This document shows, piece by piece, positions 1,912 through 4,806 of a stretch of DNA of 64,000 nucleotides. The notes beneath the pieces are model-generated. The model was not told the DNA's origin. It was given only the letters and a program-made list of their open reading frames with translations, and did not search any database. Source of the DNA: Escherichia phage DCP2. The stretch is from the sequence record OR780565.1; one strand, given 5' to 3'. The stretch's first letter is position 1. Every line of letters starts with the position of its first letter. Both the position numbers and the translations under genes were made by a program.

Positions 1912-3251
<1,340 letters not shown>

Positions 3252-3311: not shown

Positions 3312-3830
3312 ATGGCATACTTTAATGAATGTTCACAACTGATTGAAGGCGCTGATAAAGCTCAAAACGAATACTGGGATATTCTCGGTGATGAAAAAGA
3401 CCCGCTGCAAGTTATGCTTGATATGCAGAAATCTCTGCAGGTTCGTTTAGCTAAAGATAAACCTGAATATAACCGTCATCCTGATGATTTGGCTACTGCG
3501 GGTGAAGTTGTTGATTGGCTGCGTAATCAGAAAGATTATATTGATGATGAATTCCGCGAACTATTGACTTCTCTTGGTGGTATGAGCAATGGTGAAAAAG
3601 ATGCATCTGCTGTATGGAAGCCTTGGAAAGCTCAACATGGTGAACGACGTGAAACTCTGATTACTGATTTGTCTCCACAAGACCAGTTGGAAATTAAATT
3701 CGAAATGATTGATATTCTTCATTTCGTTCTGAACATGTTCCAAGGTCTCGGTCTTACGGCTGAAGAAATCTTTAAACTTTATTATCTGAAAAATGCTGAA
3801 AACTTCGCTCGTCAAGACCGAGGTTATTAA
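3312..3830 (+). CDS. 56: dCTPase/dUTPase gp56 (172 aa)
   Basis: Start moved to ATG 3312 (SD AAGGA); MAYFNEC...YYLKNAENFARQDRGY matches recalled T4 gp56. Confidence 0.9.
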   Translation: MAYFNECSQLIEGADKAQNEYWDILGDEKDPLQVMLDMQKSLQVRLAKDKPEYNRHPDDLATAGEVVDWLRNQKDYIDDEFRELLTSLGGMSNGEKDASAVWKPWKAQHGERRETLITDLSPQDQLEIKFEMIDILHFVLNMFQGLGLTAEEIFKLYYLKNAENFARQDRGY

Positions 3831-4030
3831 TGGCTCGTTTAAATAAACGTCAACTTAAGAAAGCCCACAAGAAACGTATTGACCAGCTATTTAAAAATTA
3901 TGACAAGGAGCTCACATACGAGCTCCTATCTAATCAGCTCCACAAAGCTTACACAATTAAAACTGGACATATACAATTAGGTAAGGTGCATGAAGAAGCC
4001 TTAAAATTAATTATAGAGCATTCAAAATGA
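3830..4030 (+). CDS. small basic hypothetical protein (66 aa)
   Basis: ORF track; ATGA overlap with gene 56 stop; contains 8-bp perfect palindrome at 3906-3927. Confidence 0.45.
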   Translation: MARLNKRQLKKAHKKRIDQLFKNYDKELTYELLSNQLHKAYTIKTGHIQLGKVHEEALKLIIEHSK

Positions 4031-4236
4031 AATTTGATTTTTATGCATGGCAAAAAGCCGGGAGACCGGCTAGTTGAGCATTTGGTTCTGATGGATATAA
4101 TATTAGAGCTCATTGGAAGTTTAATGCTCCAGCCGATTATTCTCCGGTAATTATTAACGGTGATGTTGTTATATTAACTAAAATTGGGTATTTTAACGTT
4201 CCGCAAGAATTTATTATAAATAGTCATGTAATTTAA
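4027..4236 (+). pseudogene. 69-codon reading frame interrupted by an in-frame TGA at 4075-4077
   Basis: ATG 4027 (overlaps preceding stop), TGA at codon 17, then 52 further open codons to TAA 4234-4236; lies where T4 carries segF. Confidence 0.3.
4215..4222 (+). promoter_or_regulatory. late promoter TATAAATA
   Basis: Exact TATAAATA ~30 nt upstream of soc start. Confidence 0.65.
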
Positions 4237-4251
4237 ATAAAGGAGAATTAC

Positions 4252-4497
4252 ATGGCTAGTACTCGCGGTTATGTTAATATTAAAACATTTGAGCAAAAAT
4301 TAGATGGAAATAAGAAAATTGAAGGAAAGGAAATTTCTGTAGCTTTCCCTCTTTATTCTGACGTTCACAAAATTTCTGGCGCTCATTATCAGATATTCCC
4401 TTCAGAAAAAGCAGCATATTCTACAGTATATGAAGAAAATCAACGTACTGAATGGATTACTGCAAACGAAGATTTGTGGAAAGTAACTGGTGAATAA
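4252..4497 (+). CDS. soc: small outer capsid protein Soc (81 aa)
   Basis: MASTRGYVNIKTFEQKLDGNKKIEGKEISVAFPLYSDVHKISGAHYQ matches recalled T4 Soc; late promoter upstream. Confidence 0.9.
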   Translation: MASTRGYVNIKTFEQKLDGNKKIEGKEISVAFPLYSDVHKISGAHYQIFPSEKAAYSTVYEENQRTEWITANEDLWKVTGE

Positions 4498-4502
4498 ATT
4501 CA

Positions 4503-4528
4503 AGGACTCCTTCGGGAGTCCTTTTTTC
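4503..4528 (+). terminator. intrinsic terminator AGGACTCC-TTCG-GGAGTCCT + T6
   Basis: Perfect 8-bp GC-rich stem, TTCG loop, T-run; directly after soc. Confidence 0.8.
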
Positions 4529-4537
4529 ATTTTACCG

Positions 4538-4567
4538 GTTTACTTTCCAAAATGAGTATGGTATAAT
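4538..4567 (+). promoter_or_regulatory. T4-type early promoter
   Basis: GTTTAC 4538-4543, TATAAT 4562-4567, 18-bp spacer. Confidence 0.5.
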
Positions 4568-4593
4568 AAAATTATCTTATAGAGGAGAGCACT

Positions 4594-4806
4594 ATGTTAA
4601 ATCGCTGGATTAAACCAAATGAAGACCTCCAGAAGGTTCTTGATAAAGCTATCTCTGATAAATGGGGTATGAAAAGCTGGGATTGTGATATCGTCACGCA
4701 TTCATTCATGATGCATGCAGATGGTTCAGTCGAGTTCAATGCTGAAATGCGATACACTGATTGGGGTGGATTTCAAAGAGTCGAATTTCAAAGAGGCTTT
4801 TTGTAA
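4594..4806 (+). CDS. hypothetical protein (70 aa)
   Basis: ATG with SD GAGGAGAG upstream; no motif recognised. Confidence 0.45.
   Translation: MLNRWIKPNEDLQKVLDKAISDKWGMKSWDCDIVTHSFMMHADGSVEFNAEMRYTDWGGFQRVEFQRGFL

Follow-up and report, generated by a model that had tools for sequence, protein, structure and literature searches.

The 56-soc interval of T-even phages

Bacteriophage T2 lacks segF and carries soc.1 and soc.2 in its place, as stated in the passage of PMC5931544 that cites Belle et al. 2002. The primary description of T2 soc.1 (Belle, Landthaler & Shub 2002) is cited here as it is quoted in AF374619, PMC5931544, and PMC2988022. In T4, the interval between genes 56 and soc is occupied by segF, which encodes a homing endonuclease of the GIY-YIG family. 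The SegF endonuclease targets gene 56 of phages that lack segF (PMC2988022, Table 1), and the phage examined here is one of these. Classical opal mutants of T-even phages form another relevant system. In these, a single base change creates a UGA codon at which RF2 competes with Trp-tRNA, and read-through is expected to be low (PMC10570021).

We analyzed a stretch of 64,000 nucleotides from Escherichia phage DCP2 (sequence record OR780565.1), referred to below as the window. A reading frame with a single in-frame TGA had been noticed in the 56-soc interval, and three readings had been offered for it: a recently inactivated gene, a sequencing error, or programmed read-through of the TGA. The first of these held up, whereas the other two did not. 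The gene order in the window, 56 - soc.2 - soc.1 - soc, was of the T2 type and matched that of ime09 and T2. The locus comprises the following features.

2472-3251, neighboring gene dam
3312..3830, + strand, gene 56 (dCTPase), from the ORF list; annotated as dCTP pyrophosphatase in ime09, ZN18, T2, and T4
3830..4030, + strand, soc.2, intact, 66 aa; full-length match to phrog_5782; annotated as soc.2 in ime09 and T2 AF374619
4027..4074, + strand, soc.1 codons 1-16 (MKFDFYAWQKAGRPAS), the most conserved stretch of the family
4056..4069, + strand, GC-rich hairpin GCCGG-GAGA-CCGGC within soc.1 codons 11-15
4075..4077, + strand, opal nonsense codon TGA; ancestral codon CGA (Arg17), altered by a C->T transition at 4075
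4078..4236, + strand, soc.1 codons 18-69 and TAA, an open 3' remnant that has lost normal translation
4215..4222, + strand, T4-type late promoter TATAAATA for soc, inside the 3' end of soc.1
4252..4497, + strand, soc (small outer capsid protein), intact; Pfam Soc PF16855, E 8.2e-54
4502..4523, + strand, intrinsic terminator-like hairpin after soc, with a 9-pair stem, a UUCG loop, and the T-run tail TTTTTCATTTT

Consecutive genes overlap in this region: the TAA stop of gene 56 overlaps the ATG of soc.2, and the TGA stop of the 66-codon soc.2 ORF (4028-4030) overlaps the ATG of soc.1, forming ATGA at 4027-4030. The Shine-Dalgarno sequence of soc, AAGGAG, is found at 4240-4245, and mrh.2 is a further neighbor gene of the locus. 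The original prediction had placed the interrupted frame where T4 carries segF and had noted that the soc late promoter overlaps its 3' end. It was right on both counts: the T4 record has segF between 56 and soc, and TATAAATA at 4215-4222 falls at the exact equivalent of the "late promoter" that the T2 record AF374619 lists at 962-969.

The soc.2-soc.1 pair and T4 segF share the interval, the orientation, and a downstream promoter function for soc (PMC2988022), but they are unrelated in sequence and family. No GIY-YIG ORF was found between 56 and soc in the window, where soc.2 and soc.1 fill the interval, and neither of the two genes matched a GIY-YIG Pfam family. The likeness to T2-type soc.1 (T2 AF374619; DUF7422; phrog_5773) is much closer. 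It extends to the place in the 56 - soc.2 - soc.1 - soc order, the length (210 nt with the stop codon), the ATGA shared with soc.2, and a 3' end that contains the soc late promoter, and the DNA identity between the window and intact alleles of this type was 93-99.5%. The difference lies in codon 17, where the window has TGA instead of CGA and the ORF is interrupted. This single-base UGA resembles those of the classical opal mutants, but it is natural, fixed in a wild lineage, and located in a non-essential gene, with no suppressor involved.

Identity of the interrupted gene

On the positive strand, positions 4027-4236 comprise 16 sense codons beginning with the ATG at 4027-4029, the TGA at codon 17 (4075-4077), 52 further sense codons, and the TAA at 4234-4236. 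Each of these coordinates had been given beforehand, and we confirmed every one on the sequence. The translation reads MKFDFYAWQKAGRPAS*AFGSDGYNIRAHWKFNAPADYSPVIINGDVVILTKIGYFNVPQEFIINSHVI*. At the base composition of the window (35% G+C), the chance of 52 codons staying open is only ~0.017, and the frame beyond the TGA is therefore unlikely to be open by accident.

Homology settles that the frame is a gene. When codon 17 of the window frame was set back to Arg and the product was used as the query, it matched Pfam DUF7422 (PF24197) over the full length of the family, positions 1-69 of 69, with an E value of 2.9e-46 and a score of 155.9 bits (the cutoff, which is the Pfam gathering score, is 27). 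The restored product also matched phrog_5773. On this homology, the interrupted frame is soc.1, a small accessory gene of T2/T4-like phages that T2-type Tequatroviruses carry together with soc.2. Its position is that of soc.1 as well, between soc.2 and soc on the same strand and with a start overlapping the upstream stop. A functional member of the soc.1 family would be an uninterrupted ORF of ~67-74 codons, and the one in the window is broken by the TGA at codon 17. What the window holds is a pseudogene or nonsense allele of DUF7422 and no functional member of the family.

Pairwise dN/dS among soc.1 alleles was 0.12-0.23, indicating that soc.1 evolved as a protein-coding gene under purifying selection. 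Residues 4-15 were invariant in all six of the intact family representatives. A homologue search of 5.8 billion sequences returned only 11 protein clusters, 4 of which were aberrant products. The AlphaFold2 model of Soc.1, built from six sequences, was poor (mean pLDDT of 62.6, pTM of 0.42), and searches with Soc.1 found no meaningful match in the PDB (E >= 0.56) or in NCBIfam. We found no literature on the function of DUF7422 or soc.1 and no data on soc.1 expression in any phage. The labels "head protein" and "virion structural protein" used by RefSeq and PHROGs appear to have been taken from the name of the locus rather than from evidence.

Origin and distribution of the TGA allele

Whether codon 17 is a sense codon in relatives had been proposed as a check, and the answer was yes. 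We compared soc.1 codon by codon in 15 loci. The alignment with ime09 has CGA at the place of the TGA in the window, and codon 17 is CGA (Arg) in ime09, T2, GiZh, fPS-65, PBM-1, EPIMAM01, and LF73P3, as well as in an IMG/VR contig of 81% identity. In diverged relatives, the codon is CGA, AAA, or CCT; across the more distant members of the family, position 17 is R, K, or P, always encoded by a sense codon although the residue is not invariant. The soc.1 genes of PBM-1, EPIMAM01, and LF73P3 differ from that of the window by a single base, the C->T change at 4075, and the 3' remnant (4078..4236) is identical to these intact alleles. Read from these alignments, the comparison shows that the ancestral codon 17 was CGA and that TGA was derived from it by one C->T transition at 4075. 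The reading of the frame as a recently inactivated gene is supported by this one-base distance from intact alleles. A frameshift was also considered as the source of the 801- versus 802-base length difference from ime09 and was rejected, since the extra base is intergenic (A at 4238/4239) and lies outside soc.1.

To count the alleles, we queried a phage collection of 50,697 records by megablast with two 55-mers centered on 4075, one with T and one with C, designed such that every 28-base megablast seed must span the site. The T (TGA) version was found in 22 records and the C (CGA) version in 148. Together, these matches account for 170 of the 173 records that covered at least 80% of the 801-base interval query. 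The T carriers include ZN18 (Yersinia pseudotuberculosis, China), a51, ECO07P4/P5 (E. fergusonii), seven phages of the CHD2BS1 group, ES19/ES21 (Houston sewage), phage 107 (New Haven), HP3 and its derivatives, YUEEL01 (Korea), and TOPO13. TGA also occurs in one contig of an ENA metagenome (L020). ZN18 is 100% identical to the window over 3700-4500. In IMG/VR, exact 25-mers gave one T match, which was ZN18 itself, and zero C matches; this search is uninformative on allele counts. A search for related loci returned only 3 loci.

A sequencing or assembly error in the window had been among the readings offered, and a single base does make the whole difference. We nevertheless consider such an error hardly conceivable and rejected it: the identical T recurs in independent assemblies, in 22 GenBank/RefSeq records from several laboratories, countries, and hosts and in the metagenome contig, and it always sits on the same linked haplotype. 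As judged from this recurrence, the TGA is a real, inherited allele of a group of related phages.

The haplotypes were compared in a table of variable sites over 3400-4800. All T carriers compared were identical over 3914-4110, except for a two-base change in codon 16 of HP3 (4072-4073), and all of them share C at 3926, where the nearest C alleles have T. Outside this block, the flanks of the T carriers are mosaic and represent at least four backgrounds. In phage 107 and ES19, the haplotype of gene 56 is very different, HP3 changes to another haplotype upstream of 3914 (with PBM-1-type bases at 3850/3853), and YUEEL01 is ime09-like from 4133 onward, a switch that explains its differences A36D, I42V, and S66N. 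One shared haplotype within mosaic flanks points to a single C->T event followed by spread through recombination. Recurrent independent CGA->TGA changes, which HP3 and YUEEL01 had suggested, were rejected because all carriers compared share the 3914-4110 haplotype.

The sequence is not new to GenBank, where it is present in identical form in several genomes, with the gene either unannotated or replaced by a spurious ORF. Among the TGA carriers, the interval is left empty in ZN18, HP3, YUEEL01, and ES19 and is assigned a spurious out-of-frame ORF in phage 107 and CHD2BS1. The 38-codon ORF with a TTG start at 4034-4150 ("putative transmembrane protein" in phage 107) was rejected as a gene-caller artefact lying out of frame inside soc.1, because intact alleles contain it as well and the C->T change leaves its translation unaltered.

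Possible recoding and read-through, and decay of soc.1

The TGA could in principle be decoded by a program: as selenocysteine, by a phage-encoded opal suppressor tRNA, or by ribosomal bypassing. T4 gene 60 is the precedent for bypassing in T4-type phages. Besides that precedent, such recoding would be suggested by the in-frame UGA with an open frame beyond it and by the stable hairpin just 5' of the UGA. We consider it extremely unlikely on the evidence that follows. At E <= 10, a scan of 3700-4600 against Rfam returned matches at chance level only, without any SECIS element. There are no tRNA genes within the 64-kb window; the tRNA region of the window phage itself lies outside it. Of the 11 tRNAs in the ZN18 cluster (Arg-UCU, His, Asn, Tyr, Met/Ile-CAU, Thr, Ser-UGA, Pro, Gly, Leu, and Gln), not one bears a UCA anticodon, and the Arg tRNA has the wild-type UCU. 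An entry listed as "tRNA-OTHER" in the ZN18 RefSeq record was rejected as a suppressor tRNA, since ARAGORN reads it as tRNA-Tyr(GTA).

RNA structure gave no better support. Folding of the RNA near the stop is somewhat more favorable than that of shuffled sequences (z = -2.56), but no conserved structure 3' of the stop was found in an alignment of 8 sequences, where the predicted stems are broken in two diverged relatives (L005 and L006). The hairpin at 4056..4069, 5' of the stop, has 6 pairs when the flanking A-U pair 4055/4070 is counted. None of these pairs is broken in the 8 sequences, and two are changed on both sides (C-G to U-A in GiZh and fPS-65; A-U to G-C in L006). This hairpin is present in TGA and CGA alleles alike and is therefore unlinked to the stop.

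Bypassing of the gene 60 type was rejected because no productive landing site was found downstream of the TGA. The take-off codon would be AGU at 4072-4074, and the next in-frame AGU is codon 66; only two downstream AGC triplets could pair with the Ser tRNA of the take-off site, and from either of them (4077-4079 or 4107-4109) the ribosome would enter a frame that closes within 4-5 codons. A downstream restart was rejected as well, since 4078-4236 contains no in-frame ATG, GTG, or TTG after the TGA. In the window, TGA ends 13 of the 50 ATG-initiated ORFs of at least 120 codons, which makes it a normal stop in this genome, and soc.2 directly upstream also ends in TGA. The stop is not conserved across diverged relatives, and T is confined to a single shallow haplotype. 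Moreover, one TGA carrier (L020) has since gained a frameshift, which further undercuts the programmed read-through that the original prediction had listed.

A different possibility is that read-through is not programmed and that the host Trp-tRNA yields a few per cent of Soc.1(W17), an amount that is sufficient or even preferred, with the downstream frame under selection. The coat gene of Qbeta offers a parallel: its UGA is read through by Trp-tRNA at a few per cent to give the A1 protein, the UGA is conserved, and the product is required. What the two would have in common is a UGA of an E. coli phage that Trp-tRNA reads a few per cent of the time; the window differs in that its UGA is a derived minority allele, missing in most relatives, and in that at least one carrier shows decay of the downstream frame. 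No stop codon of E. coli is leakier than UGA, whose read-through was ~2% at 37 C and ~4% at 25 C in reporters in K-12 BW25113, and this low read-through arises as Trp-tRNA competes with RF2 (PMC10570021). A Trp inserted at position 17 might be tolerated, given the R, K, or P found there across the family, and codons 18-69 are intact in all 22 database carriers. The most read-through-prone UGA context reported in E. coli, however, is +4A (PMC5289835), whereas the base following the soc.1 TGA is G, and no conserved stimulatory structure was found downstream of the stop. The intact remnant is equally explained by a young allele one base away from intact ones.

The changes private to the TGA lineage also bear on this possibility. 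They are S16F in HP3 and, in L020, a +T insertion near 4145 and F56S, neither of which was seen in any other haplotype. All of them are non-synonymous or frameshifting and none is synonymous, although they amount to only three events. At the dN/dS of the family, mostly synonymous changes would be expected under continued selection, and the observed changes weakly favor relaxed constraint, insofar as so few can. Overall, we regard a leaky but selected allele as unlikely.

It is very probable, in our judgment, that the TGA marks an ordinary, recent opal pseudogene of the dispensable gene soc.1 and not a recoding signal. In this ordinary pseudogene, soc.1 would be co-transcribed with 56 and soc.2 from a middle promoter upstream of 56. 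This proposed transcription unit is drawn by analogy with the annotated T2 and T4 records: AF374619 has a Mot-box middle promoter annotated upstream of 56, and the T4 record notes a 56-segF transcript. Translation of soc.1 would start at ATG 4027 by reinitiation coupled to the termination of soc.2 through the ATGA overlap, and RF2 would release the chain at the UGA after 16 residues, leaving codons 1-16 as the only part of soc.1 expected to be translated efficiently. At most, background misreading of UGA by Trp-tRNA (~2-4% in E. coli K-12 reporters, PMC10570021) would yield traces of the W17 product, and the TGA allele would be effectively null or a strong hypomorph. Expression of soc should be unaffected, as the gene has its own late promoter and is followed by the strong terminator at 4502-4523.

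The allele would be tolerated because soc.1 is dispensable. The downstream 159 bases would remain intact because the lesion is young and because the 3' end contains the soc late promoter, with the ribosome-binding region of soc. No further lesion after the stop was found in any of the 22 database T records, which fits a young pseudogene and is compatible also with continued weak selection on a read-through product. Lesions in soc.1 are not limited to the TGA lineage. Two CGA alleles from other assemblies carry independent 1-nt frameshifts: L019 has a +A insertion after codon 26, and L021 has a 1-nt deletion in codon 28. Assembly errors could account for these two lesions and for those of L020, all of which were seen in metagenome or run assemblies. 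Compared with three later T2 genomes, the T2 entry AF374619 lacks one nucleotide, which is why its "soc.1" is only 40 codons long. T4 lacks soc.1 altogether.

We consider it very unlikely that the C->T change spread through an effect other than on the protein or because the loss of Soc.1 was itself advantageous. In its promoter version, this explanation holds that the conversion of TCGAGC to TTGAGC completes a sigma-70-like promoter, TTGAGC-16 nt-TATAAT (4074-4101), that could drive early transcription into soc. A promoter scan lists this element with 10 of 12 matches, and, as read from the sequence, the ancestral C leaves the first hexamer with 3 of 6 matches, failing the scan rule. Such matches are common in AT-rich DNA, however (9 found versus 5.4 +/- 2.5 in shuffled sequences), the -35 match is modest and unlike the T4 early GTTTAC type at 4539-4567, and soc has its own late promoter. 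In the defense version, inactivation of soc.1 removes a protein sensed by some host defense. Several independent disruptions of soc.1, its replacement by segF in T4, and the presence of the allele in at least four flank backgrounds would agree with a selected change. Against this, we found no evidence of a defense system that senses Soc.1 and no literature on Soc.1 function, and the allele is in the minority, at 22 of 170 records.

The TGA allele has persisted through several recombination events and in several hosts (E. coli, E. fergusonii, and Yersinia pseudotuberculosis), and it is therefore not strongly counter-selected. That selection actively maintains it is, in our estimate, quite unlikely. 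Three versions are possible: strong down-tuning or loss of Soc.1 may help on some hosts, for example, by escaping a sensing defense; the 16 N-terminal residues that are retained, which form the best-conserved part of the family, may work alone; or the internal TTGAGC-16-TATAAT (4074-4101) may alter soc expression. Evidence that the allele is selected would suggest a function for DUF7422, but nothing here requires selection.

The recent opal pseudogene is a real but ordinary finding, of little importance outside annotation. What lies between soc.2 and soc in ZN18, HP3, YUEEL01, ES19, phage 107, and the CHD2BS1 group, as an empty or oddly annotated gap, is a soc.1 pseudogene, and the "transmembrane" or "hypothetical" ORFs of 35-38 codons called in it are artefacts. 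The TGA allele can also serve as a haplotype marker with which recombination near the SegF target region of T-even phages is easily followed. With at least one nonsense lesion and several frameshifts on record, and no copy of the gene in T4, soc.1 provides evidence from natural variation for its own dispensability, and the gene would appear to be dispensable under laboratory and many natural conditions.

Broken soc.1 reading frames in assemblies and in the first T2 record

Three metagenome or sequencing-run assemblies carry other broken forms of soc.1, each described here as assembled. Two of them have CGA at codon 17: ENA ERZ13617300 gains an A after codon 26, and Logan ERR4191872 has a 1-nt deletion in codon 28. 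The third, ENA ERZ16268256, has TGA together with an additional T near window position 4145 and the substitution F56S.

A discrepancy was also found among the T2 records. The original T2 "ORF soc.1" (AF374619.1, 775-897; UniProt Q94MW2) comprises 40 amino acids, whereas later T2 records encode a 69-aa protein. When compared with positions 680-889 of T2 AP018813, the frame in AF374619.1 is shifted by a 1-nt deletion, with GGATATAAT of the later T2 genome sequences reading GGAT-TAAT. The deletion reflects either a mistake in the early sequencing or variation in a laboratory stock.

Annotation of soc.2, soc.1 and related phage records

Existing annotations place a different ORF, of 35 to 38 codons, inside soc.1 and out of its frame:

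Window 4034-4150, + strand: out-of-frame ORF inside soc.1
Comparison locus L003, 635-751: out-of-frame ORF inside soc.1
Comparison locus L010, 644-751: out-of-frame ORF inside soc.1

The ORF is named "putative transmembrane protein" in phage 107 and "hypothetical protein" in the CHD2BS1 group. As a gene it is probably an artefact, called by gene callers after soc.1 was broken. RefSeq and PHROGs names for soc.2 (3830-4030) and soc.1 (4027-4236) include "virion structural protein" and "head protein." No literature support was found for either label in these two genes, and both seem to have been taken from the names of loci beside soc.

ZN18, a relative of the window, has 11 tRNAs, among them those for His, Asn and Tyr; ARAGORN assigns its RefSeq "tRNA-OTHER" (NC_054945.1, 124289-124372; 12287-12373 in the fetched locus L018) to tRNA-Tyr (anticodon GTA). 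The RefSeq record of HP3 (NC_041919.1; locus L007) bears the taxonomy line "Caudoviricetes; Rosemountvirus." This looks like a misassignment, since HP3 is 99.4% identical to the Tequatrovirus-type interval of the window and has the T-even gene order.

An ORF upstream of dam

In T4, genes 61 and dam are separated by a gap of ~310 bp without a gene, whereas the window has an ORF at this place:

Window 1912-2472, + strand: 186-codon ORF, its stop overlapping the dam start (ATGA)

In Pfam it resembles the restriction endonuclease DpnII at a subthreshold level (E value of 0.0048; 16.7 bits against a cutoff of 23), and its similarity to BanI is likewise subthreshold. Judged by sequence, the ORF is a candidate GATC-type nuclease-like gene coupled to the Dam GATC methylase.

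Sequence elements around the nonsense codon

Two further elements lie within soc.1:

Window 4074-4101, + strand: sigma-70-like site, TTGAGC and TATAAT separated by 16 nt, 10 of 12 matches
Window 4055-4070, + strand: GC-rich hairpin AGCCGG-GAGA-CCGGCU, in codons 11-15

The promoter-like site is made by the same C-to-T change that creates the stop, which turns TCGAGC into TTGAGC. It is probably a coincidence because sigma-70-like sites are frequent in this AT-rich region.

None of the six pairs of the hairpin is broken among the eight aligned relatives, and two of the six show two-sided changes: C-G is replaced by U-A in GiZh and fPS-65, and A-U by G-C in a diverged relative (L006). Most pairs are dictated by the amino acid motif A-G-R-P-A; the free wobble pair covaries. 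The hairpin may be the reason why codons 1-16 of soc.1 are the best-conserved part of the family.
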